From positions 1 to 35,413 of the forward strand of contig JAAEOZ010000062.1 in assembly GCA_024222685.1 (NCBI GenBank): DNA of 35,413 nt, in the 5' to 3' direction. The translations under genes were made by a program, and so were the position numbers. Under the pieces are notes generated by a model. It ran no database searches. It was not told the DNA's origin and saw nothing but the letters and a program-made list of their open reading frames with translations. Source of the stretch: Gammaproteobacteria bacterium. Lineage in GTDB: Bacteria > Pseudomonadota > Gammaproteobacteria > GCA-001735895. This document shows positions 1 to 12,061 of the stretch, in pieces (positions within the stretch are counted from its first letter, which is position 1; each line of letters opens with the position of its first letter).

Positions 1-322
1 AAAGCAGCTTGTCGAAGGTTTATTACAGCAGTCACTCTCAGCCCTGGAGCTGGATCCGAAGCTCGCCGACGGCAAAGTTGTTACCAATGGCGATTATGTC
101 GGCGATGGATACGGTATCTCAACCGCCGGCATGATCGAGGCGGTGAAACGCTGCGCACAACTCGAAGGCCTGTTACTCGACCCGGTTTACACCGGCAAGG
201 CAATGGCTGGTTTAATTGACCTGTGTTCGAAAGATATGATCAAGAAGGCGAGAAATACTTTGTTTTTACATACTGGTGGCAGCCCTGGACTTTATGGTTA
301 TCGCGAAGTTTTTTCGGGATGA
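1..322 (+). CDS. D-cysteine desulfhydrase / ACC deaminase family PLP enzyme, 3' part (truncated by window edge)
   Basis: Frame is open from position 2. It contains DYVGDGYG, EGLLLDPVYTGKAMAGL and FLHTGGSPGL, which are the conserved C-terminal motifs of this family. Confidence 0.85.
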   Translation, partial: KQLVEGLLQQSLSALELDPKLADGKVVTNGDYVGDGYGISTAGMIEAVKRCAQLEGLLLDPVYTGKAMAGLIDLCSKDMIKKARNTLFLHTGGSPGLYGYREVFSG

Positions 323-384
323 AACATCGATGATCAAGGGGTCAGATTAATTGATATTCAGGCACCTTAATATTATCCTGACTA

Positions 385-645
385 TTGTCGAAATGGATAA
401 AAGTGATGACCAATCACGTTCATTTACTAGTGGCAGCTTATACAGAAGAAGGTATTGGAAAAATAAAGCCGTTTAATCAACACAAAGCCTACCGGCAATT
501 ATTTCCAAGTTACTTAACGGAAACGGATTTGAGAGATATTCGCGAAAAAATCAATAAAGGCTGGGTCCTGGGTAGTGAGGAATTCAAGCGTAAGATATAT
601 CAATTTACAAGACATCCATACTCTTTTACGGTAACATTAATTTAA
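385..645 (+). pseudogene. Degenerate HUH/Y1 (IS200-like or REP-associated tyrosine) transposase remnant
   Basis: HUH motif MTNHVHLLV, followed soon after by a C-terminal-like segment (DIREKINKGWVLGSEEFK). At 86 aa it lacks the N-terminus and middle of a full enzyme. Confidence 0.65.
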
Positions 646-735
646 ATAATGATAATAGAAACGAGCTTTTAACTCTCGAGTTTACCCTAATATGTCTTGT
701 TGAGGCTTTAGATATTGTAATGAAGGGAAATAAAA

Positions 736-1200
736 TTGGAACTTTCTTTTAGACGTTATTACTTATTTTTTCAAGCATTCGTTGCATTATTGCAAGCTTG
801 GAATATTAAAACTCGCAGTAAAATTTCCTACGTTCAATTTACCCCCTCTAATCAATTAAATAAACTTTCCCAGACTGATATAGACTATCTGGCAAAATGT
901 GCCGATTTCCTGGTGCGCTATGGAGCTATCCGCACTGGCAGAAAGTGTTTTTTTCGCGCATACATACTCGGCTCTGTGTTACGTAAGTGGGGTATACCAG
1001 TCATTTTGAATGTGGGTTTATACAATTTAATTGGAGACTGTAAAAGACGCGGGCATTGTTGGCTTACCCTAAACGGTCATATATTTGCTGATTCTTCAAC
1101 CAAAGTGGATATTTATAAAACCCGGCTAGGGTCAGGTAGCAACGGCATTTGTTATTGGTATGGAGACTTGAAAACACCATCTTCTAATATCTATTGCTAG
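736..1200 (+). CDS. Lasso-peptide B2-type leader peptidase (transglutaminase-like cysteine protease)
   Basis: KCFFRAYILGSVLRKWGIPVILNVG...GHCWLTLNG matches the B2 pattern CLxRS...G(I/V)...HAW. TTG start with GAAGGG upstream. Adjacent to an RRE gene. Confidence 0.85.
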   Translation: MELSFRRYYLFFQAFVALLQAWNIKTRSKISYVQFTPSNQLNKLSQTDIDYLAKCADFLVRYGAIRTGRKCFFRAYILGSVLRKWGIPVILNVGLYNLIGDCKRRGHCWLTLNGHIFADSSTKVDIYKTRLGSGSNGICYWYGDLKTPSSNIYC

Positions 1201-1215
1201 TAGAACTACGGAAAT

Positions 1216-1506
1216 ATGAAAACCTTTGCTCTAAATCATACGCAATATGTTCCCAGCACAAAACTGACATGGCGCGAAGTTCATGGTGAATTAGTAGCGA
1301 TAGATGTTAATAGCGGTGAGTACCATGTTTTTAATGCGATAGGAAAACTTATTTGGTTGTCCATTGATGAAGGATGTACCGCTCCCGAAATTCTAACTCA
1401 AATTGAAATGGAATATATTGTTAATAAAGAAACTGCACTAGCCGATTTAAATGAATTTTTAGGTGATTTATGTGATCGAGGGTTATTAATAAATAACTCT
1501 CAATAA
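1216..1506 (+). CDS. PqqD-family RiPP recognition element (lasso B1-like)
   Basis: 96 aa with the pattern WREVHGELVAID..SGEYHVFNAIGKLIWLSID...EY.V....A..DL.EFL..L...GLL, typical of the PqqD/RRE fold. Confidence 0.9.
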   Translation: MKTFALNHTQYVPSTKLTWREVHGELVAIDVNSGEYHVFNAIGKLIWLSIDEGCTAPEILTQIEMEYIVNKETALADLNEFLGDLCDRGLLINNSQ

Positions 1507-1615
1507 ATATCAATCTTATAGAGGAATTAATTCCTGTTTATTATGTGTCGCTATCTAGTAATTCAATTAAACGGTTATTAACGGCCATGAATGACCCACT
1601 AATGAGGAAATAAAA

Positions 1616-1780
1616 ATGAAAGAAATTAAAAATGATAAGTTAGTAATCCTGGATTCACAAAAAATAGAGGAAAAATCTGAGGAATTACAAAAACCGTACG
1701 TTGCACCAAAATGCGATACCCATAATCCGTTAAAAATAATGAGTGCCTGGCAAGATAATTCTTCAGAATTAGAATTTTAA
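1616..1780 (+). CDS. RiPP precursor peptide, 54 aa: MKEIKNDKLVILDSQKIEEKSEELQKPYVAPKCDTHNPLKIMSA-WQDNSSELEF
   Basis: Translated by hand; too short for the ORF track. RBS GAGGA at 1604-1608, ATG at 1616, TAA at 1778-1780. Carries the YxxP RRE-binding motif (KPYVAPK) and lies between the RRE and kinase genes. Confidence 0.85.
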   Translation: MKEIKNDKLVILDSQKIEEKSEELQKPYVAPKCDTHNPLKIMSAWQDNSSELEF

Positions 1781-1840
1781 ATATTTTGTTAGGCTGTTTA
1801 ATGTCACGTATTTTTTCGAAGCGTCACTAGTAAGCTGCGA

Positions 1841-1859
1841 AGGCTAATTTTATTAGCCT
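1841..1859 (+). terminator. Stem-loop downstream of the precursor gene (partial terminator or mRNA stabiliser)
   Basis: AGGCTAAT-TTT-ATTAGCCT is a perfect 8-bp inverted repeat about 60 nt after the precursor stop. There is no long U-tract. Confidence 0.45.
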
Positions 1860-1970
1860 CGAAGTTTGCCTGGAAATACCAATAAGTGAATTTTTTCAGG
1901 GTTAACTTATTATTGTCTTATATAGATTTCTCCTGGTAAGTAACAGTTTGCCCAGGTCAGTTGCTTGCTA

Positions 1971-2966
1971 ATGACATCGTACAAACTTCCGGGTATTACT
2001 CTATCCATACAGGCTACCTCACCGAGAGTGGAAAAAGCTTTAAAAAGTATATTTAATGAGTGTCAAGAAACACACCAAGAAGCAGATATGATTTTGAGAG
2101 GGAATGGAATCCAAAATCATGAGATTATTGATTATTTACCTGACTGGATTATTAAACGACTGCCGCATTTAGACGTGCGGATGGATCCTATTATGCTTTA
2201 TAGCCCAGAAAATCAGGCAGCAGCTATTGGGAAAATTGGTGATTCATTATATTGTGCCTGGAATTCAATAGCCGGTACATCTGTTAATTTTGTCTGTACT
2301 ATCGATAATCAGAATAGCTCTTATGGCTTATTCCATCCAGTATTAATACCTGTTTTACGAGAAGCATTCTTAATGCACGGACTTTTGATGCTTCATAGCG
2401 CCGGAGTAAGTTGTCCCAACGGGGTTGGTGCTTTAATTATTGCAATCAGTGGTGGAGGTAAAACCACAACTGCTCTCTCTATGGTTCGCATTAATGCAAA
2501 GCTGATTGCAGATGATTTGATAGTATTAAATCCTTTAACGACATCACTTCAGGCAGAGGGCATTCCTAAGTTATTAAATTTAAAGATGGAGACAATCGGA
2601 TTTTTTGAAGAGTTAAAAGCATTGCCAAATTCTTCGTTTACCAAAAAACATAGATATAAAAAGTCAGTTTCTGCAATTAAAGTTTATGGCAATAATTGCA
2701 TGAAATCCTTAGCTAATATTCACGTCGTCTATTTTGTAAAGGTATCACCTGACGGCCCAGCAGTTACACGTTTAACAGTTGCTGATTCTTTAAATCGTTT
2801 AGCGCTAGCACATAGCTTTAGTCGCAACCAGAGACTCGATAGCAGATCTATTAGTGGTTTAACTGAAGCATTAAGCCTAGTGGAAGCTTATGAACTAACA
2901 ACCGGACCAAATCCCGACAGATTGGGAAAATGGTTAATGCAACATTGTTGCAACCATAAAATATGA
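1971..2966 (+). CDS. HPr-kinase-related Ser/Thr kinase (RiPP tailoring kinase)
   Basis: LHSAGV (conserved His), Walker A-like ISGGGKTT and LIADDLIVL (DD motif) are the HprK-family signature. Start is ATG 1971 or TTG 1965. Confidence 0.85.
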   Translation: MTSYKLPGITLSIQATSPRVEKALKSIFNECQETHQEADMILRGNGIQNHEIIDYLPDWIIKRLPHLDVRMDPIMLYSPENQAAAIGKIGDSLYCAWNSIAGTSVNFVCTIDNQNSSYGLFHPVLIPVLREAFLMHGLLMLHSAGVSCPNGVGALIIAISGGGKTTTALSMVRINAKLIADDLIVLNPLTTSLQAEGIPKLLNLKMETIGFFEELKALPNSSFTKKHRYKKSVSAIKVYGNNCMKSLANIHVVYFVKVSPDGPAVTRLTVADSLNRLALAHSFSRNQRLDSRSISGLTEALSLVEAYELTTGPNPDRLGKWLMQHCCNHKI

Positions 2967-4021
2967 AAAAAAACGTCACTGATAGTTGTGAAAGAAAATT
3001 TGTCTGCGACATGCTGCGTGCCTTTATCGATAAAGAAACGAATAAAGCGATCGTTTCAGAACTTACCTTACCTAAAAATATAAACTGGAATTTATTGGAA
3101 GCAGTAGCCGCTAGAAATGGTTTAATTGCGATTTTACAATCCATGATTGATCCCTCCTGTATCCCCATGCGACATAAGGAAAAATGGATGCGTTATTCTG
3201 TTCAGACTTTATTTAGTTACACACAGTCAGAAAAAGTAGCGGCAAATTTTTTTGGAATTTTGAATGAGGAGGGCATACCAGCCGTTGCAATGCGCGGTAT
3301 GGCGTTGTCACAATGGGTGTATTCCGACCCGATTTTTAGGCCCATGGTTGACATTGATATACTCGTTCCTTCCGATGTTAGATATGATTTTGTAGCTAAT
3401 CTTGAAAAACACGGACTAAGGTGTAAAAGAACTTTGCGTAGCCAGTTTGTATATGAAATAGACAATATAAAAATTGAAGTACACTGGTCTTTTCTTACCC
3501 CTAAACGCTATCGTGCTTCAGCTAATTTTGATAGATGGCTTGATACTCGCCAGGAATTTGTAACCAAATCAGGTGCCATTTATTGTTTTTCCCCGGAAAA
3601 TGAATTATTAGATTTAGTGTGCCATGCGTTTATTCATCATGAACTTGATACATTACTTAAATTAACGGATATTGCGTTGGTGGCGAGTTACAAAAATCTG
3701 GATTGGGGTTATATTAATCAATGGTGTGAAGAAGCTTCGATGACAAGACTCTTCGCTATCACATTGGGCCTTATTGATCATTTATTTGGTCTTTCTTTTT
3801 TGAATAATTTGACCCAAAAAAACACACGATCAAATTATTCGGTTAAGTTTTATAAAGCCTATTCTGCTCGGTTTTTCCAGACTGACACAGTTACTGATCT
3901 ATTTCGCCGTAAACGGGCACTGCTATATGCTGCTGAAACTATCGATATAAAAATAAAACAGCTAATACGCTTTTTAAGTATCGACCAATTTTCAGAGCTA
4001 ATCAAAATAACAAAAGCTTGA
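2963..4021 (+). CDS. Nucleotidyltransferase family protein (NTP_transf_5-like)
   Basis: MRGMALSQWVY...RPMVDIDILV, IEVHW and H..H...L.DI match this family. Overlaps the kinase stop by 4 nt. Confidence 0.85.
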   Translation: MKKNVTDSCERKFVCDMLRAFIDKETNKAIVSELTLPKNINWNLLEAVAARNGLIAILQSMIDPSCIPMRHKEKWMRYSVQTLFSYTQSEKVAANFFGILNEEGIPAVAMRGMALSQWVYSDPIFRPMVDIDILVPSDVRYDFVANLEKHGLRCKRTLRSQFVYEIDNIKIEVHWSFLTPKRYRASANFDRWLDTRQEFVTKSGAIYCFSPENELLDLVCHAFIHHELDTLLKLTDIALVASYKNLDWGYINQWCEEASMTRLFAITLGLIDHLFGLSFLNNLTQKNTRSNYSVKFYKAYSARFFQTDTVTDLFRRKRALLYAAETIDIKIKQLIRFLSIDQFSELIKITKA

Positions 4022-4064
4022 GTAAATAAAAGAATGCAGGGATCTAATCGCTCGCCGTCATCGG

Positions 4065-4296
4065 CAACAATCCAGCTTTCGGTTCTACAGTCTATATGAC
4101 AAGGTCTATCGGGATGACGTACTGCAACACGCCTACGATCTGGTCAGGAAAAATAGAGATAGTGGATGGCCCACTGTTGAGTCTACTGAGGCAATGGCTA
4201 AAAGTGCGGGTCGTCCAGGTAGAAAAAGGCAGGGAGATGTGTAGGTGGCGGCAAGAAGGCTCGAAAAGGTCCACCGCAAGTGGTATCAACGTCTAA
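4065..4296 (+). pseudogene. Degenerate group II intron reverse transcriptase/maturase fragment
   Basis: Frame from 4077 reads FRFYSLYDKVYRDDVLQHAYDLVRKNR (RT0 region). Another frame reads IVDGPLLSLLRQWLK, and a decayed KGPPQ resembles GTPQGG. Internally deleted and frameshifted. Confidence 0.75.
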
Positions 4297-4408
4297 TTAT
4301 CTCAGGTCGGACCTGAATAACTCATTGATTCCACATGTAGATCATCTCCGGAAACGATACTGTAACGTGCTGACTGTTCACGTTTCGTACGGACATCAGA
4401 GCAAAAAA

Positions 4409-5002
4409 TCAGGGGCTGTGTTGTGTTTCCGATTGATTTAGTGAACTAACCAGAACTGCGCTGGGACTGACAATACAGACTTCGCGGCACAGGCCGCAAC
4501 CGACGCAGATTTCCTGGTCGATAACAGGTCTGGTCATCTCCCACCTGAGCGCGCCCGGAACTGGGCAGGCATATTCACAGGCGCCGCATTCGGGTCCGCT
4601 ATAGGGCAGGCAGGTCTCGGTATCAATTGTTACCAGCGCCAGTCGTGGTAAATCGGATTCGGTATTCTTTTCGCTTTTGGCTATTTGCAGAGCTTCAGTT
4701 TCACAGGCATTAACGCAGGGCCAGTCTTCGCAGAGATGGCAACCGACATTGAGCAGGTCTAGCGCCGGAGTGCCCGCTGCCTGGACATCAAATTGGCCGG
4801 AAAGATTAAAGATAACATCGTGTGGGCAGGCCTCGATGCAGGCATCACAGCGCGTGCAGTTGAGCAGGAAATTCAGTTCATCCTGCGCGTAAGGCGGTCG
4901 AATCCAGTGGCGCGCTTTTTGTTTGACCTTATGATCGATGTGCTTGACGACTTCCTCGGCCGAGCGTCGAAAAGTATTTTTAAAGAAAGTTCGACGGTCC
5001 AT
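4409..5002 (-). CDS. NapF/NapG-like multi-[4Fe-4S] ferredoxin
   Basis: Start MDRRTFFK at 5002 overlaps the upstream stop (TAATG). Contains IRPPYA, CTRCDACIEACP, CHLCEDWPCVNAC, CGACEYACP and CVGCGLCREVC. Confidence 0.8.
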   Translation of the reverse strand: MDRRTFFKNTFRRSAEEVVKHIDHKVKQKARHWIRPPYAQDELNFLLNCTRCDACIEACPHDVIFNLSGQFDVQAAGTPALDLLNVGCHLCEDWPCVNACETEALQIAKSEKNTESDLPRLALVTIDTETCLPYSGPECGACEYACPVPGALRWEMTRPVIDQEICVGCGLCREVCIVSPSAVLVSSLNQSETQHSP

Positions 5003-6537
5003 TACATCCTCATGATCATAGGTTGCATCAACATCCACAGGTGGAATGACATGATCGTCACCACAAATAATAATATCGGTGATAAACGAAACCCCCACAG
5101 ATTTTGTGCTTCACCTGAGAGGAGTTTGTGGCCACGATTGCGGATGATTTGTAGAGAGACGATGAATCCGAAGATCATTAAAGCAGTTTGCACTAAATAC
5201 AGGAGATCCTGCGATAGCCACATTTGCATATGGCGTTGATGTTTCTCCATCATGGTAAGCGGTAGTGTTCCGTTGCCCAACGGATTGGTAATGACTGCCC
5301 ACAGGTTGCCCCCTTCGCGAATCAGATGATTCAGGTTGTGCGCCATGTGATAGGAGAATGCCAATGGCAGCGCGACGAATGCCATTTCGGCGAAGCAACG
5401 CCTAAACTCCAGTTGGGTTTTCGCCAGATAACGTGTCAGTGATATCAGCAGGCTATACAGGCCCGCGACGATTGCCAGGCATAGCAGCAGTCCGATGCTG
5501 AAGCTCCATAGCAAGCGGCCGGAATCACCAATCAAACGGGCAAGACTTTTCATCCAGTCTTCCCAGAACGGCATCATGGTAATGCCGTGAAACGCGGTCA
5601 ATGCCAGTAGGCCTAGCATGAACCAGGCTTCGTCCCAGTGCGGGCGGCCGCTGTGTATGGCTTCGACACTGGGTGAACGCAGGCGCCAGGCGATATTCTG
5701 CTGTGGACAACTGAGCGAACAATTGCCGCATGATGTGCAATAACTATTCTGATTCAGACGCCCCATCACCAGCCAGGTGGGGCAGGCATCGATCGTTTCG
5801 TTACCGTGGTAGCATTCCAGGGTTTTACAATCGGCACATATTTGCGGCTCAATCGGGCGCAGCTCAACCGTCGCCAGTTGTGAGTAAACGCCGACCGTGC
5901 GACCCACCGGGCAAAAGTTTCGACAAAATGCCTTGCGTTGAAACAGGGCCAGAGAAATCGTCGCCAGTACAACCATGAGCAATGCAACAACCGCGGTGGC
6001 GTAGGGGTTGATGGTAATACCCACGCCGAGCTCGAGCCAGGTCAGGCCGATGAATAAAATCAATGCGGGCCAGACATTATTGAGATAGCGCGGCACACGC
6101 CAGTTCAGACTGTTGTTGGGTTCGGCGCGTTTCCACAGGCGACGACGCACCAGCCAGTGCGCGATGGCGTCCCAGGGGCAAACTGAACACCAGGCGGAGC
6201 CGAACACGAAAATAGAAAATACCAGTGCCGACCACCACAGATTCCAGGTCACGACGGTGGCGAAATTCCGCTCGGCGACAGGCGTACCAGACAGGCCGGC
6301 AATAATCACGGTGAGGAAAAATAACACCATGAGCAATTTTAGCGACAACAATACCCAGACACTGGTGGCGATACGTTGAATTACCCCGCCGACGAGGGGT
6401 GTGCGGGTCAAATTGTAAACCAGGGTATGTCGTTTGCCGGGAACCGGAAACACACAGGCTAGCACGAGGAATACGATCATCGATGCGAAAATGAATATTG
6501 CCCACGACAGTGGTAAACCGGGGTGCGTCATCGTCAT
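5002..6537 (-). CDS. Polytopic membrane [4Fe-4S]-binding protein (NapH/FixG/FtrD-like)
   Basis: About ten hydrophobic segments with WCSVCPW, FCRNFCPVG, CADCKTLEC and CTSCGNCSLSCP. Confidence 0.75.
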   Translation of the reverse strand: MTMTHPGLPLSWAIFIFASMIVFLVLACVFPVPGKRHTLVYNLTRTPLVGGVIQRIATSVWVLLSLKLLMVLFFLTVIIAGLSGTPVAERNFATVVTWNLWWSALVFSIFVFGSAWCSVCPWDAIAHWLVRRRLWKRAEPNNSLNWRVPRYLNNVWPALILFIGLTWLELGVGITINPYATAVVALLMVVLATISLALFQRKAFCRNFCPVGRTVGVYSQLATVELRPIEPQICADCKTLECYHGNETIDACPTWLVMGRLNQNSYCTSCGNCSLSCPQQNIAWRLRSPSVEAIHSGRPHWDEAWFMLGLLALTAFHGITMMPFWEDWMKSLARLIGDSGRLLWSFSIGLLLCLAIVAGLYSLLISLTRYLAKTQLEFRRCFAEMAFVALPLAFSYHMAHNLNHLIREGGNLWAVITNPLGNGTLPLTMMEKHQRHMQMWLSQDLLYLVQTALMIFGFIVSLQIIRNRGHKLLSGEAQNLWGFRLSPILLFVVTIMSFHLWMLMQPMIMRM

Positions 6538-6540
6538 GGA

Positions 6541-7131
6541 TTATTCCGGCGCTATCGGTTTCGACGGCCTGTCGCTTTGTATCTTCGCGCGCGTTAAACG
6601 TTTGCGTTGCACTATGCTGACAGTAATCAGTACTAATACGATGATACCGACTGCAATACCCAGTGGCCCCACAGGCAACGGATTACCGACACTCATCGGG
6701 AAGTCAATGCTATAAGCTTGGTTATCGGCGACAAATTCAGCGGTGATAATATAGTTACCTTCTTGCTGAAAAACAAAACCCTGCCGATAAACGCTGTCAT
6801 CGAGCACCTGCGCACCGAGTTTTTCTTGCTGGTTGGAAAACCAGCTGTCGTCTTTAACCCTGAAAGTCACATCGGTATTGAGCGGCTCACCGTTATCCAG
6901 GTGGGCAGCGTAAAAATGGATACGACCCGCTTCGTTGGGTTTGGGAAATGCCGGGTAAACCATTGCGGTAACAAAATAGTTGCCGATCTGGGTTTCGATA
7001 TTCATGCTCGGCGGCGTGTTCGAATCTTCATTCAGGCTATAGGACGGACGGCCGAGCACGTGATGCGAAAATGCCTGCGCCGATAGCAGCGCAGTCACCA
7101 GAAATAAAAGAAATTGTCGTGAATGGTTCAT
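6541..7131 (-). CDS. Hypothetical exported, C-terminally membrane-anchored protein (~196 aa)
   Basis: ATG at 7131 overlaps the upstream TGA. Signal peptide ends AQAFS, mature part begins HHVLGRP, and there is a C-terminal TM helix with a basic tail. Confidence 0.7.
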   Translation of the reverse strand: MNHSRQFLLFLVTALLSAQAFSHHVLGRPSYSLNEDSNTPPSMNIETQIGNYFVTAMVYPAFPKPNEAGRIHFYAAHLDNGEPLNTDVTFRVKDDSWFSNQQEKLGAQVLDDSVYRQGFVFQQEGNYIITAEFVADNQAYSIDFPMSVGNPLPVGPLGIAVGIIVLVLITVSIVQRKRLTRAKIQSDRPSKPIAPE

Positions 7132-7745
7132 GCCTGGCTCGCCGAGTGTGCCGCAATCGTACCGCGAGATCGTTCGACTATCCAGATGGGTAAACTGGGA
7201 TGAGGGCAGACTTCGACACAAAGCCCGCAACCGACACAGCCTTTTTGTACCACCGGTTGATACTGATTCCACTGTTTGAAATTGATGCCGCGTTCACCGA
7301 GCGGACAAATACTGACACAGGCACCACAGATACCCCGGTCGACCCATGGGTAACAGGCGCTACGATCGATTTGTGCGATCCCCATATCGATTGCTTCACG
7401 AGCCACCAGGGTTAGTGCTTCGGTGGGGCAGACCTCCATGCACTTGTTACACAGAATGCAGGCTTTGTTTTCGGGGTCGATGTAGGGCGTGCTGACCTGC
7501 GCCCCGCCATCTCGCTGATGAAAGCGAATACAACGCGGTGGGCAGATTTCGCCACAAAGGCCACAACCGATACATGCAGCGACAAAAGCACTATCGTCCT
7601 TTAACGCGCCAGGAGGGCGTAAATGTTTTTTGTTGTCAATCTTAACCGCTGGCGTCATTACCCGGCTGATTACCATAGGCATCGATGCGGACGCCAACAT
7701 GCCGAATGTATAAACCAGCCACTGCGATACGCTACGACGGCGCAT
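7128..7745 (-). CDS. NapG/MauM-type ferredoxin (second copy)
   Basis: Probable start MRRRSVSQW at 7745. Contains LRPPGA, CIGCGLCGEICP, CILCNKCMEVCP, CGACVSICP and CVGCGLCVEVCP. Confidence 0.8.
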   Translation of the reverse strand: MRRRSVSQWLVYTFGMLASASMPMVISRVMTPAVKIDNKKHLRPPGALKDDSAFVAACIGCGLCGEICPPRCIRFHQRDGGAQVSTPYIDPENKACILCNKCMEVCPTEALTLVAREAIDMGIAQIDRSACYPWVDRGICGACVSICPLGERGINFKQWNQYQPVVQKGCVGCGLCVEVCPHPSLPIWIVERSRGTIAAHSASQA

Positions 7746-8745
7746 GACTGGTTTGTTCCTCCTGCGCCTGACGTCGATATAGCTGACCGAGTTGTCCGGG
7801 ACCCTGAAAAGCAATATCTTTTGGTGAGATGTAAAACGTCATCGCATCGGTTGGGCAGACCGCTATGCAGGCGCAGCAGTTATTGCATTCCTGGCCAAAG
7901 TCATCCCGTAATGGATCGAGGCCAAATTCGCATATGGCGGTACATTTGGCACAATCGTTACAGCTTTCGACGATACGTTTGATTCGAAACATGCGATAGC
8001 GCCCGATTAATGAATATAGCGCGCCGCCGGGGCAAAGATAGCGGCAAAACCCGCGCCGCGCGACGAGCAGGTCGAACAACAGGGTAATCAGAAAATAAAC
8101 TATCCCGGAACCGAAACCACCGAGCGCAATCGCGTAATAAATTTCTCGGCCGATCACCGCTGGCGGATAAATCGCCGCAAACACGACCGAACCCGAGGCC
8201 ATTGCAACCACCAGTCCGAGTATTAACACGATATATTTAAGTCGTAAGTCGAATTGTCTGCGCCCTGTACGAAATCCGGCCTTTTGTAATATCGCCGCGA
8301 GGTTGGTATTGAGTTCGTATAACAGTGTTGCCGGACAAATCCATCCACAAAAAAAGCGGCCAAAAATGGCGGTTAACAGCACGGGCAGGAGTGCGGTGAG
8401 CAGGAAGGGCCAGAAAATTTTCAGTCCGCTGGCAATCTGCCCAATTACCGCCAAAGGGTCGCTGAGTTGAAAACTCCAGAAAGTACCCGACCAGGTATTG
8501 CCTTTTACCGCATCGAGCTGCTTTTCAGGATCCGATACAAATGGCCTGGTGAGGTTTTCCATGGCATCGTAGAACTGCTTTTCTCCCGGTGCGAGCAGGT
8601 CATAGGCATGCGCCGCGATATAGGTTTGATAGAGATGGATAGTGGGAATCAGCAGCAGCATCAAAAAGACTACCGACAGGCTCAGCCAGCGCAGCTTGTT
8701 TAAGTGCTTCCACAGGGAAAACGGTTTCAGCGGGGAATTGGGCAT
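7732..8745 (-). CDS. napH: NapH/MauN-type ferredoxin membrane protein (quinol dehydrogenase subunit)
   Basis: LSDPLA, FGRFFCGWICP, RRGFCRYLCPGGALY, CNDCAKCTAIC and CNNCCACIAVCP. Start 8745 overlaps the upstream TAA. Confidence 0.8.
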   Translation of the reverse strand: MPNSPLKPFSLWKHLNKLRWLSLSVVFLMLLLIPTIHLYQTYIAAHAYDLLAPGEKQFYDAMENLTRPFVSDPEKQLDAVKGNTWSGTFWSFQLSDPLAVIGQIASGLKIFWPFLLTALLPVLLTAIFGRFFCGWICPATLLYELNTNLAAILQKAGFRTGRRQFDLRLKYIVLILGLVVAMASGSVVFAAIYPPAVIGREIYYAIALGGFGSGIVYFLITLLFDLLVARRGFCRYLCPGGALYSLIGRYRMFRIKRIVESCNDCAKCTAICEFGLDPLRDDFGQECNNCCACIAVCPTDAMTFYISPKDIAFQGPGQLGQLYRRQAQEEQTSHAPS

Positions 8746-9311
8746 TAAGTGTAATCCGGTATAATACGGATGGCATGTGGCAACTGGATGCAGGAGCGTT
8801 CGCATAGTCCACAACCCACGCAACCGTCCAGTACATGTGGCTGCTCAAGGCGGCCGACTCGAATCGCGATATCGGGTAATGGGCAGGCTCGATAGCACAC
8901 ACCGCAGGTTTTTCCCTGGTACGACAGGCAGAGGTTTTCATCGACCCGCGCTTTGCCCATTTTGACCTTTTGCAGAATGGGTTCCATATCGCGTTCGATG
9001 GGTTCAATCGCATCGGTCGGGCAAACCTCACCACACTTCATACATAATATGCAGGCCTGTTGGCGCGGGATAATGTAGGGTGTATCCAGCGAAGCGATGC
9101 CGTTTTCGACACCGAAGTATTGAATGCATCGATTAGGGCAGACTTCACCGCACTGGCCGCAGCGAATACAGCGACTTTCAAAATCCTGTTCGCTCAGCGC
9201 CCCGGGTGGACGTAGATATCGTAGACTTTTCGACTGACTGGCCGGTAGGCCGGCGGCGGGCAGCATCGCTGCGACCGCCGCCAGACTTTTTATGAAATGC
9301 CGGCGTCTCAT
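8745..9311 (-). CDS. napG: NapG/MauM-type periplasmic ferredoxin
   Basis: Tat signal MRRRHFIK, LRPPGA and four Cys-cluster motifs beginning CIRCGQCGEVCP. Confidence 0.8.
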   Translation of the reverse strand: MRRRHFIKSLAAVAAMLPAAGLPASQSKSLRYLRPPGALSEQDFESRCIRCGQCGEVCPNRCIQYFGVENGIASLDTPYIIPRQQACILCMKCGEVCPTDAIEPIERDMEPILQKVKMGKARVDENLCLSYQGKTCGVCYRACPLPDIAIRVGRLEQPHVLDGCVGCGLCERSCIQLPHAIRIIPDYT

Positions 9312-9334
9312 GGTGTTACAGATTTCAGGTCCGG

Positions 9335-12061
9335 CTAGCCGATCTTTTCAATACGCGCCGCCGATTTTTTGAAGTCCACCTGTCCCGAAACCGGGTCCCA
9401 GACGCGGCTGGTAACGCGGTTAGCGAGCCACTTGTTTTTCTCGGGTACTGCGCTGTCGGCGACGGACAGATTCCAGGGTCCGAACATATAACCGCGAGGC
9501 ACGTTATTACGTGCTGGTTTGACCAGACTATTGGTGCCCACCTGGGCGCGTGCTTCGAGTTGCCCGCGACGGGTAATCACGCGTACTTTATCGCCATCTT
9601 CGATACCCAGGTCTTTCGCATCGTCGGCGTGCATTTCGACGTACATTTCCGGCACCAGTCGACGCGTGGTTGGGCTGCGGTTCGATTTCGCGGTATGGAA
9701 ATGCTCGTAGACTACGCCAAGACCGAACCAGTAGGGAAATTTATCTTCTGGTACATCTTGCCATTTTTTACCGCGGTGGGCTTCGTCGGGTATATCGGGG
9801 GTGAGCCCCTTGTCGCGCGCCAGTTTTATCAGATCTATGTGGTCGATGGTGTAAAGATCGGCTCTGGTGCCAAATTCCATCAACTTCCTGGTAATTTCCT
9901 CACGGTCGCTATAGTCCTGGTGGCAAATCCGCATGTGTACCTTGCCATCCTTGGTACGGAAATAACCATAGGGTTTACTTTCCCAGTTACCTTCCTGCAG
10001 CATATAGCGGCGCTTCGTACCACCGGTCTTGGCAATACCGTAAGACGGTGACGGCCACTGGATGCCACGCAGATTTATGAGCTGCTGATAGGGCGAAATA
10101 CCGTCGACTTTTTCAACCTCGAGAATACCCGTCAAATCGGCATCGGTGCCCACCGAGGCGCGGCAAACATCGCGGAAAACCTCCTCGCTGTCGTAGAAAC
10201 CATTCGCGGTGCGCTTATAGGGTAATGCCTTGTCCATATCGAGCCCCAGCAATTTACCTATGCCCTTGGCTTTATCGATAACCATATCCATGTCAGGGCG
10301 GCAGCCTTCGGGAGGCATCGCGGCCTGTTGACAAATATTGATGCGACGTTCGGAGCTAATGTAGACGCCGTCGACCTCACCCCAGGTGGCCGCCGGAAAG
10401 ATTACATCGGCGTAGAGGTTGTTCGGCGCGTGACGATAAATTTCCTGTACCACGTTAAAGGTTTTCATCAGTGCCGGGCGCACCAGATTCTCCTGATCGG
10501 GTAAATCGATATGCGTGGCATACACCAGAAACATGGCCTTGACTTCGTCCTTCAGTGCACGCTCCATCATGCCCACCGCCATGCCCGGATTGGCCGAGTT
10601 CATCGCGTTGACCAGGTTTTGTTCGGGGACACGCCAGAATTTGGCGATCTGCGCGCGGTGTTTGTCATTCTTGAGTGATTCGTTGAACGGCAGGCGTCCG
10701 GTCAGGCCACCGGTAAAACGTTCGCCCATCGCATTCGGTTGACCGGTCATGGAAAAAGGTCCGCAGCCTGGCTTGGCCAGGTTACCTGTCAAGGTGAGCA
10801 GGTTGACGATGGAAATGACGTTATGCTGGCCGTGGATGTGCTGGTTATAACCGATTCCCCACATGATGATAACGCCACCGTAGGCTTCGCCACCGGGTAC
10901 TGCGCTGGCGACATCGGAAGCCTGTTTGCCCTTGCTGCGCGCCAGACGTTTACGCGTGGCGTCGGCAAACATTCCGGCGACTTTACGGATTAACTCGGGT
11001 GAAACGTCGTGGTTCGGCCCACCCATTCGGTCCTGCACCTGTTCCGGACTGTAATTGTTCGTCACTTCGTCTACATATTCCTGCCAACCCGTGGTGTGTT
11101 CCTTAACAAAATCCCAGTCGATGGTATCGGGGTGGTCTTTGAGTAACACATGGGCGATCGAATTGAGGAAACTGATATCACCGTTCAAGATCGGCACATG
11201 CACCGTGTTGTCGGGGTTGATATCCTGGTATCCCTTGGTGGTACCGGTATAACGCGGATCGACAATAACGGTGGGAATATCATTCTTCTTTTTATGATCG
11301 GCAGCGCGCCAGAAAACAATCGGATGCGACTCGCGGGCGTTATGGCCGAAGTGCATAATCATGTCACAGAGTTCGATGTCGTCGTAGGCCAGTGGCGGGG
11401 TATCGGAACCGAGTGTTGCAAAATATCCGGTGACCGCCGAGGTCATACACATGCGTGCATTTGCCTCGATGGTATTCGAACCCAGTACGCCTTTCATGAA
11501 CATATTTTCCAGATACTGACCTTCCATGGTGAGCTGGCCCGAGCCGTATAGCGAAATCGAGTTGCCGCCATATTTCTTCGCCAGATGCGCAATCTTGTGA
11601 TCGACCATTTCACTGACTTCTTTGTAAGACACGCGTAGGAAGTGCTCATCGTCAAATGATCCCTTGGTCTTGCTGATGTAATCGAGATCACCATGCCCGG
11701 GTTTGTTCCACTCTTCCCAGACGTCTTTGCGCACGTAAGAGTCGCCTTCCATGCGGTCGACATAAATCGGTTCGGCGGCGGTCAGACCCTTGATGCATTG
11801 CAGGCCGTAATTAGTAGGGTGGTCCTTGTCCGGGCGCATCGATACAATTTTGCCGTTTTCGGCCTGGATCACCGTGCCACAACCGACCCCGCAATACGGG
11901 CATTGCCCAAGCGCGGTAGTCCGCGTTGCGGTATCGCCTTCGCTGGTAGCAGCTTCGAGTTCCGGGTTAACGCCGACCATCAGGCTGGCACCCGCAGCGG
12001 AGCCGGAGATAAAGGCGCTGTTCTTGATAAAATCGCGCCGATTCATTTTAATTCTTTTCAT
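9335..12061 (-). CDS. Tat-exported molybdopterin (bis-MGD) oxidoreductase of the nitrate reductase NapA/NasA/NarB clade
   Basis: Tat signal NRRDFIK, [4Fe-4S] motif CPYCGVGCG...CIKG, Mo-ligand region NARMCMTSAV, FSMTGQPNAMG, and a C-terminal MGD-binding domain ending DPVSGQVDFKKSA. Confidence 0.85.
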   Translation of the reverse strand: MKRIKMNRRDFIKNSAFISGSAAGASLMVGVNPELEAATSEGDTATRTTALGQCPYCGVGCGTVIQAENGKIVSMRPDKDHPTNYGLQCIKGLTAAEPIYVDRMEGDSYVRKDVWEEWNKPGHGDLDYISKTKGSFDDEHFLRVSYKEVSEMVDHKIAHLAKKYGGNSISLYGSGQLTMEGQYLENMFMKGVLGSNTIEANARMCMTSAVTGYFATLGSDTPPLAYDDIELCDMIMHFGHNARESHPIVFWRAADHKKKNDIPTVIVDPRYTGTTKGYQDINPDNTVHVPILNGDISFLNSIAHVLLKDHPDTIDWDFVKEHTTGWQEYVDEVTNNYSPEQVQDRMGGPNHDVSPELIRKVAGMFADATRKRLARSKGKQASDVASAVPGGEAYGGVIIMWGIGYNQHIHGQHNVISIVNLLTLTGNLAKPGCGPFSMTGQPNAMGERFTGGLTGRLPFNESLKNDKHRAQIAKFWRVPEQNLVNAMNSANPGMAVGMMERALKDEVKAMFLVYATHIDLPDQENLVRPALMKTFNVVQEIYRHAPNNLYADVIFPAATWGEVDGVYISSERRINICQQAAMPPEGCRPDMDMVIDKAKGIGKLLGLDMDKALPYKRTANGFYDSEEVFRDVCRASVGTDADLTGILEVEKVDGISPYQQLINLRGIQWPSPSYGIAKTGGTKRRYMLQEGNWESKPYGYFRTKDGKVHMRICHQDYSDREEITRKLMEFGTRADLYTIDHIDLIKLARDKGLTPDIPDEAHRGKKWQDVPEDKFPYWFGLGVVYEHFHTAKSNRSPTTRRLVPEMYVEMHADDAKDLGIEDGDKVRVITRRGQLEARAQVGTNSLVKPARNNVPRGYMFGPWNLSVADSAVPEKNKWLANRVTSRVWDPVSGQVDFKKSAARIEKIG

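Follow-up and report, generated by a model that had tools for sequence, protein, structure and literature searches.

The 35,413-nucleotide contig JAAEOZ010000062.1 of a Gammaproteobacteria bacterium (assembly GCA_024222685.1), analyzed in full and referred to here as the window, carries near its left end a five-gene cassette, all on the forward strand, in the order B2, B1, A, kinase, and nucleotidyltransferase. The third gene, A, at positions 1616-1780, encodes a peptide of 54 residues. Our comparisons with related sequences indicate that this is a real, conserved coding gene. It is likely to encode the precursor of a peptide synthesized on ribosomes and modified after translation (RiPP) that uses the B1/B2 leader module of lasso peptide biosynthesis together with a tailoring pair of an HprK-like kinase and an NTP_transf_5 nucleotidyltransferase, without a macrolactam cyclase. 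The product is probably short, linear, and phosphorylated.

The open reading frame (ORF) starts with the ATG at 1616 and ends with the stop codon at 1778-1780, and a ribosome-binding site, GAGGA, can be read from the sequence at 1604-1608, 7 nt ahead of the ATG. The original prediction, made from the letters of the window, had described this ORF with its good ribosome-binding site, the motif KPYVAPK, the positions of Tyr28, Pro31, Cys33, Ser43, and Trp45, and the C-terminal WQDNSSELEF with Glu at its positions 7 and 9, and all of this was found exactly as described. The codons of Tyr28-Val-Ala-Pro31, the motif predicted by its conservation in alignments to bind the recognition element, occupy 1697-1708; the putative core, Trp45 to Phe54, occupies 1748-1777, with a boundary derived from the register that places Tyr at position -17; and the candidate phosphorylation sites Ser49 and Ser50, both conserved in an alignment of 42 sequences, are encoded at 1760-1765. 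No Pfam or NCBIfam model matched the peptide. An identical 54-residue protein is present without a name in a large protein collection (P0001), and a single-sequence search of 5.8 billion proteins with the peptide returned only itself. The family surfaced only via the DNA beside kinase homologues and an alignment-based search.

As the kinase has eight relatives at 35-70% identity, their alignment was scanned against genome and metagenome contigs, which gave four loci with full-length kinase homologues (L009, L010, L011, and L015). Homologous small ORFs adjoin all four of them, located between B1 and the kinase in L010, upstream of B2 in L011, upstream of the kinase in L009, and as two tandem copies (1-138 and 272-445) upstream of a single kinase in L015. 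The search of DNA beside homologous genes that had been proposed as a check returned an ORF with the YxxP motif at all four loci with a full-length kinase homologue. Six peptides can be aligned from Tyr28 to their C-terminus with no gap, and Y28, P31, P38, D47, S49, S50, L52, and F54 are invariant among them. A profile built from these six retrieved 22 clusters when grouped at 90% identity and, with E <= 0.001 among 1.84 billion proteins, 33 representatives at 50% identity. When the profile was run on 3702 six-frame segments from 21 loci and the window, it matched solely the window, L009, L010, L011, and L015, and it gave one match per genome in the window's own genome and in three others.

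Over the last 27 codons, the comparisons of the window with L009, L010, L011, and L015 gave proportions of synonymous differences (pS) of 0.79-1.00 and of nonsynonymous differences (pN) of 0.29-0.36. Synonymous sites are thus saturated with the protein conserved, which indicates purifying selection on the precursor, and the single population variant within the ORF is a synonymous A>G change at 1771 (run X2). We consider 1616-1780 a conserved coding gene on the basis of the homologous ORFs at the kinase loci, the profile family, the pS/pN values, and this synonymous variant. An Rfam search of positions 1-4500 gave no match at E <= 0.1. The 198-nt spacer 3' of the ORF folds no better than shuffled sequences (z -1.59) and contains no prominent terminator-like or promoter-like site, the site counts being within the expectation from shuffles.

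Among 53 family members, [YF]xxP stands exactly 21 residues ahead of [ST]S..L in 48, and in these 48 the tail after Tyr comprises 26 residues in 38 cases, 27 in seven, and 25 in three, a fixed spacing to the C-terminus that supports the original reading. The remaining five fail this regular expression: P0056 has a one-residue insertion, P0057 has A-S, P0058 has SSDI and an extension, and P0059 and P0062 have divergent ends. Residue counts were taken over the 47 distinct strings from Tyr (Y+0) to the end. Y+0 is Tyr in 46 and Phe in one, and Y+3 is Pro in all 47, in support of the claim that the peptide is a genuine precursor with a lasso-type YxxP leader. Y+5 is hydrophobic (V 20, C 13, F 5, I 5, M 2, L 1, W 1); the original prediction had called the Cys at -12 atypical, which does not hold within this family, as 13 of the 47 strings have Cys there and the position is hydrophobic like the published [L/V/I/A/F/Y]. 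Further along, His is found at Y+8 in 30, Pro at Y+10 in 45, Leu at Y+11 in 46, Ile at Y+13 in 36, and Met at Y+14 in 35 strings. Y+15 is mostly Ser (38; also Arg 7, Thr 1, Gln 1), Y+16 is variable, and Y+17 is aromatic throughout (Trp 35, Tyr 9, Phe 3). Y+19 is always Asp, and the columns that the expression itself demands follow with Ser at Y+21 (46) and Y+22 (47) and Leu at Y+24 (47).

An alignment of 42 hand-picked sequences (A5), which is independent of the regular expression, gave a similar picture, with no variation at P31, D47, S50, and L52 and conservation of 90% or more at Y28 and S49. From the 53 peptides, P0014, P0019, P0026, P0045, P0049, P0056-P0060, and P0062 had been left out of A5 as N-terminally extended calls, truncated or odd C-termini, or a 281-residue fusion, and P0001 is represented in it by the window reference. 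N-terminal to Tyr, the family members vary in sequence and in length (13 to about 30 residues), and the C-terminal half is conserved, which looks like the usual layout of leader and core.

Some members of the family deserve mention in their own right. The conserved halves of the two tandem copies in L015, which are the same precursor pair as P0011/P0012, differ only at residues flanking the cleavage site proposed below (S-A-W versus S-K-Y). A sub-family comprising P0046, P0047, P0051, P0054, P0055, P0060, and P0061 has a tail that is longer by one residue (7 of 48) and ends in -S-S-E/D/Q-L-P-G-[IFV] and not in -L-x-F. In P0060 (281 residues), a B2-like protein and a family peptide share one open frame; this could be a natural fusion, a lost stop codon, or a gene-calling artefact, and the B2 C-terminus is unlike that of the others.

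The genes that flank the precursor, assigned with Pfam and NCBIfam models, support the original reading. The B2 gene (736-1200, 154 residues) encodes a transglutaminase-like cysteine leader peptidase that matches PF13471 (Transglut_core3) with 30.7 bits against a cut-off of 26, and NF033537 (lasso_biosyn_B2) with 18.4 bits, below the cut-off of 33. All three homologues share Cys71 and His107 and have an acidic residue (D/E/E) 12 positions after this His, so that by sequence B2 has the transglutaminase-core fold with a Cys-His-Asp triad. It is the sole Transglut_core3 gene in its genome. B1 (1216-1506, 96 residues) is a discrete PqqD-type RiPP recognition element (PF05402, 51.5 bits; two lasso PqqD chaperone models match below cut-off). 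Its closest solved relative is TbiB1, a lasso B1 protein crystallized with its leader (5v1u/5v1v, E 1.6e-7), and it also matches 9x90 and 9x8z, both recognition elements of the LPP paper discussed below. B1 is therefore a PqqD domain related to solved leader-binding B1 proteins, for which leader binding is predicted. In an ungapped alignment, the pocket-dividing Phe falls on Phe81 of B1, which Asp77 precedes by four residues. In LppB, D70, four residues before F74, hydrogen-bonds the leader Tyr according to the part of the LPP paper that covers this protein (PMC13381572). We infer that Asp77 and Phe81 correspond to D70 and F74, as in recognition elements that read a Tyr.

The kinase gene (1971-2966) encodes 331 residues from the ATG at 1971, the called form P0002, and its product is an HprK-like serine kinase. 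The kinase matches PF07475 below cut-off (26.2 bits) and TIGR04355 and TIGR04352 weakly; nine homologues all share the P-loop SGGGKTT, and the P-loop region aligns to the HPr kinases 1ko7 and 1jb1. The last gene (2963-4021, 352 residues), the start of which overlaps the kinase stop, encodes an NTP_transf_5 nucleotidyltransferase (PF14907, 123.6 bits; 115.3 bits for the L010 homologue). The island enzymes look active, as judged from their conserved catalytic and P-loop residues. A matching gene set surrounds the peptide in L010 (B2-B1-A-K-N) and L011 (A-B2-B1-K-N), where K and N denote the kinase and the nucleotidyltransferase, and the hosts of the homologous loci are labelled Verrucomicrobiota, Desulfobacterales, and Thermodesulfobacteriota. 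A signal-peptidase domain is absent from all five island proteins, and neither an ATP-binding cassette (ABC) transporter nor a cyclase was found in the 10 large window ORFs scanned outside the island.

Seven other loci (L012-L014, L016-L018, and L021) were rejected as members of the family, being relatives of the kinase by the P-loop only and having no such peptide. A conserved accessory gene upstream of the L010 and L011 cassettes was also considered and dropped, as only a 10-residue stretch is common to both (E 0.012) and no Pfam model matches. Directly downstream of the nucleotidyltransferase of L010 is a gene for a WaaY-like kinase of the lipopolysaccharide core (8145-8897; PF06176, 22.7 bits), which recalls the published association of LPP clusters with polysaccharide loci and was seen at this single locus.

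A cyclase had been noted as missing, and none was found in wider searches. Neither the island nor the 35-kb window contains an Asn-synthase-like lasso cyclase. The genome to which the window belongs (98% complete, 812 contigs) has two PF00733 Asn_synthase matches, neither of them near B1 or B2. The one of 589 residues is an AsnB with glutamine amidotransferase domains, whose neighbors look to be of the glutaredoxin and aminotransferase types (judged from their sequences without a family search); the one of 349 residues sits between a heptosyltransferase and a sugar kinase/cytidylyltransferase of the lipopolysaccharide-core type. Both were rejected as cyclases. Three other genomes have 14 Asn_synthase matches in total, and none of these shares a contig with the peptide; one of the peptide contigs is 37 kb long. 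The system thus has the [Y/W]xxPx[hydrophobic] leader, the discrete B1, and the B2 peptidase of lasso peptide clusters, and its cluster has no macrolactam cyclase (C). Moreover, only three residues or one would follow a ring closed at Glu in position 7 or 9. Because both the cyclase and a threadable tail are absent, the product of this precursor is not a lasso peptide.

Among known systems, the nearest is that of the Linear Polyphosphorylated Peptides (LPP; Popov et al., Nat Commun 2026, PMC13381572), whose clusters lack a cyclase and are said in that paper to be restricted to Bacillota. They are described there as encoding a recognition element, an HprK kinase, an uncharacterised NTP (nucleoside triphosphate) transferase, the SpI/SipW-like peptidase LppS, and an MsbA-like exporter. 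The same paper gives the leader as YxxPxVLxHQxIxFETxxS, with Tyr at -16 and cleavage after T(-1), and precursors of 35-200 residues with long, variable cores (45 residues in the characterised one), the internal S3 being polyphosphorylated by LppK. Like LPP, the system described here has no cyclase, encodes its recognition element as a discrete protein, and combines it with an HprK-like kinase, an NTP transferase, and a leader of the YxxP type. The combination of recognition element, kinase, and transferase without a cyclase that characterizes LPP is thus present. Within the leader, His at Y+8 is common to both, as are a hydrophobic residue at +5 and a hydroxyl residue at Y+15; the rest differs. 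A patchy distribution and horizontal spread are also found in both. However, the peptidase is a SpI/SipW-like serine enzyme in LPP and a B2 cysteine enzyme here, the MsbA-like exporter of the LPP core cluster has no counterpart in the island, the cores are long and variable in LPP while the family described here has a near-invariant tail of 10-11 residues, and LPP hosts are Bacillota, in contrast to those named above. Because there is no SpI peptidase and no exporter and the core is short and conserved, this is not LPP as defined, and by analogy it may be regarded as a Gram-negative cousin of that family, which was first described in 2026. The general idea of a linear, cyclase-less, phosphorylated lasso relative was already published with LPP.

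The second comparison is with phosphorylated lasso peptides. In paeninodin, an HprK-like kinase phosphorylates the C-terminal Ser of the precursor before folding, and in pseudomycoidin the nucleotidyltransferase PsmN adds one or two hexoses to the phosphate, as far as the consulted part of PMC8498205 describes them. For Bsf of the Gram-negative Bradymonas sediminis, the consulted part of PMC10368454 places YxxPxL at -17 to -12, states Y(-17) for most lasso leaders, and reports that BsfK phosphorylates the internal Ser3 and that BsfB1 speeds phosphorylation and helps BsfB2 to cut. Phosphorylation of an internal Ser, which the original prediction had set apart from paeninodin-type substrates, therefore has precedents in Ser3 of Bsf (BsfK) and S3 of LPP (LppK). 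Leader removal by B1 and B2, the kinase K, and the nucleotidyltransferase N are common to these three peptides and the system described here. Their clusters, however, have a cyclase C and usually an ABC exporter D, and they make threaded lassos with a small residue in position 1, whereas the system described here has no C gene, an aromatic position 1, and a tail too short to thread. We suggest that it operates in the manner of LPP and of the tailoring arm of the phosphorylated lasso peptides.

Two further types of system are more distant. Phospeptin of 'Ca. Eudoremicrobium malaspinii' is an accepted example of a linear, poly-phosphorylated ribosomal peptide as final product (PMC9259500); its biosynthesis relies on a single maturase with a LanM-like dehydration domain, without a recognition element, B2, or HprK-like kinase. 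The HPr-rel-A and HprK-related kinase A and B systems (TIGR04352, TIGR04353, TIGR04355) combine a PqqD-family chaperone with an HprK-related kinase and name no cyclase, but the island proteins score far below the cut-offs of these models (31.4 and 26.6 bits against 200; 18.8 against 35). A locus in a metagenome-assembled genome of Candidatus Thiosymbion (L012, 5479-6612) encodes a 377-residue protein in which a PqqD-like domain (TIGR04353, 27 bits) is fused to an HprK-related kinase A domain (TIGR04352, 68 bits), and the ORF that follows could be assigned to no family; it is a different cyclase-less HprK system, without the peptide family described here. In the literature searched, the supplementary cluster lists of PMC13381572 and Kretsch et al. 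being outside its scope, no cluster of B2, B1, kinase, and nucleotidyltransferase without a cyclase is described, nor is this peptide motif, and RRE-Finder (PMC7470986) and PMC12710340 mention neither a kinase nor a nucleotidyltransferase.

What we infer about binding, cleavage site, modified residue, transferase chemistry, and biological role can be put together as follows. Binding of B1 to the leader would involve Tyr28-x-x-Pro31 and the hydrophobic +5 residue, and B1 would present the bound precursor to the kinase, which would phosphorylate Ser49 and/or Ser50, possibly several times. The nearly invariant Ser-Ser is the obvious candidate target of the kinase, in line with what had been predicted. 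Its constant spacing of 21 residues from Tyr is what a fixed geometry of B1 and kinase would demand; the corresponding distance from leader Tyr to phospho-Ser is 19 residues in Bsf and 18 in LPP, going by the consulted parts of PMC10368454 and PMC13381572, respectively. The nucleotidyltransferase may add a sugar or a nucleotide-derived group to the phosphate. Finally, B2 would cut off the leader, most likely after Ala44, and release the linear, acidic WQDNSSELEF of about 10 residues, with 11 or 12 residues as possible variants. The claim of a 10-residue core thus stands as far as the Y(-17) register fits, and we put it by analogy at even chances or marginally better. The length itself is bracketed at 10, 11, or 12 residues because published registers differ: Y-17, Y-16, and, in the paeninodin-like PbaA, W at -15 (as given in the consulted part of PMC13381572).

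The explanation that comes closest to the pathway just outlined keeps its enzymes and moves the cut. Cleavage after Ser43 (Y-16, as in LPP) would leave 11 residues and cleavage after Met42 (-15, as in paeninodin) 12, and with a cut still further upstream the product would retain the conserved P-L-E-I-M-S block. Such a shift would account for conservation that runs past the proposed boundary, as Pro Y+10, Leu Y+11, Ile Y+13, and Met Y+14 are as conserved as the core, and both registers are documented. However, the peptidase is of the B2 and not of the SpI type, and YxxPxL spans -17 to -12 in the Gram-negative phosphorylated Bsf family, as far as described in PMC10368454. The pattern of Ser (Y+15), a variable position (Y+16), and an aromatic residue (Y+17) also mirrors T(-2), x(-1), and core position 1 of lasso precursors. 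Because of the B2-type peptidase, the hydroxyl residue at Y+15 that resembles T(-2), and the variable Y+16 between conserved positions, we favor the cut after Ala44 and rate a different one as unlikely, though by no means negligible. A true lasso peptide, with its cyclase encoded elsewhere or missed by the assembly, could be argued from the leader motif, the lasso-type B1/B2 pair, the Glu residues in core positions 7 and 9, and the fragmentation of the genome into 812 contigs. This is very improbable, as the genome is nevertheless 98% complete with both PF00733 matches unrelated by context, the peptide contigs of all three other genomes lack an Asn_synthase gene, a tail of three residues or one cannot thread, and core position 1 is always a bulky aromatic residue.

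The cassette could also be the decayed, non-functional remnant of a lasso cluster, or the peptide an uncleaved small phosphoprotein and not a RiPP at all. The island was horizontally acquired, has a low GC (guanine plus cytosine) content, is missing in the relatives searched (24 genomes of the same genus yielded no orthologous kinase), and lacks an exporter, as a remnant might. Yet three other lineages, of phylum level as labelled, have the cyclase-less gene set together with the peptide, their frames being intact and their catalytic residues conserved; purifying selection acts on the peptide, and its variable N-terminus and conserved C-terminal half fit a leader and a core, which leaves this explanation scarcely more probable than a true lasso peptide. 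By far the least probable account is a chance ORF: the precursor region is AT-rich (GC 0.29-0.33) and short ORFs are frequent in such intergenic DNA, but the conservation at the kinase loci, the profile family, the pS/pN values, and the six-frame specificity refute it, and we give it practically no weight.

Several observations weigh against the cyclase-less RiPP pathway outlined above, which as a whole we still consider likely. The kinase and B2 remain below the curated cut-offs of the specific NCBIfam HprK-related and lasso models. Gene content with B2 and B1 was read at three loci, the contigs of about 45 further peptides being outside this count. The island has no exporter. The differing published registers make the cut site uncertain, and Y+15 is Arg rather than Ser or Thr in seven of the 47 strings. 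The invariance of the [ST]S..L columns is partly by construction, and the alignment that avoids this problem, A5, is small. Finally, the homologous transferase of LPP was inactive in a heterologous host, according to the consulted part of PMC13381572.

The cassette lies in a low-GC accessory island (about 330-4100) with a GC content of 0.29-0.40, compared with 0.47-0.57 in the flanks. Contigs that bridge the right island junction exist in four public runs, which derive from two samples in a single study. On the left, the assembly branches at the 328 junction: contigs spanning 1-328 continue differently past 328 in all four runs and at higher depth (about 28-100 on the alternative continuation versus 7-20 inside the island), and the contigs that link to the island have just 30 nt of left flank. 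From this branch point and the 30-nt overlap with the left flank, the cassette gives the impression of an insertion that varies between strains; either only part of the population seems to carry the island, or the left join is a choice of the assembly graph. At the left edge of the island, 385-645 encodes an 86-residue ORF without a significant family match, and contigs in three runs match 464-531 or 464-523 with other flanks, which suggests that the segment in 385-645 is a short repeated or mobile piece; the DNA of 330-735 has no second copy in its own assembly.

Other parts of the genome were noted in passing. The host flank on the reverse strand (4409-12061) encodes several 4Fe-4S proteins of the Fer4_5 membrane and dicluster types and a 908-residue molybdopterin oxidoreductase, a respiratory-type operon unrelated to the peptide. 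A second PqqD-type gene of the same genome (contig C422; L004, 133-426) was considered and set aside as unrelated to this system. Its neighbor, directly after it at 423-1193, looks by eye like a radical-SAM gene, and the pair is probably another RiPP-type system.

If the proposed pathway is right, it would be a second, enzymatically distinct route to linear phosphorylated lasso relatives, with a B2 cysteine peptidase in place of a SpI-like one, and it would extend such peptides beyond the Bacillota, the sole group in which the one published family, LPP, is said to occur. About 50 natural precursors with a fixed motif, cut, and serine spacing would provide a clean test bed for two questions, namely how a B1-bound leader positions its substrate for both kinase and peptidase, and what NTP_transf_5 enzymes, which are without a defined substrate, add. 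With five genes in less than 4 kb, the cassette is easy to synthesize and express. The case also illustrates that mining rules that require a cyclase, and gene callers or tracks that skip ORFs of about 50 codons, hide whole RiPP families.

More tentatively, and with somewhat less than even confidence, we propose that these precursors represent a separate, hitherto undescribed RiPP family of Gram-negative and other non-Bacillota hosts, which has kept B1/B2, lacks the cyclase, and makes a near-invariant linear peptide of 10-11 residues, [WYF]-x-D-x-S-S-[ED]-L-x-[FY], with phosphate and perhaps a sugar or nucleotide on its Ser-Ser. The core is almost constant across phyla, whereas the cores of LPP and of antibiotic-type RiPPs vary widely, and a peptide of this kind would be expected to act on a molecular target that is itself conserved, or as something like a signal or cofactor, and not as an antibiotic in an arms race.

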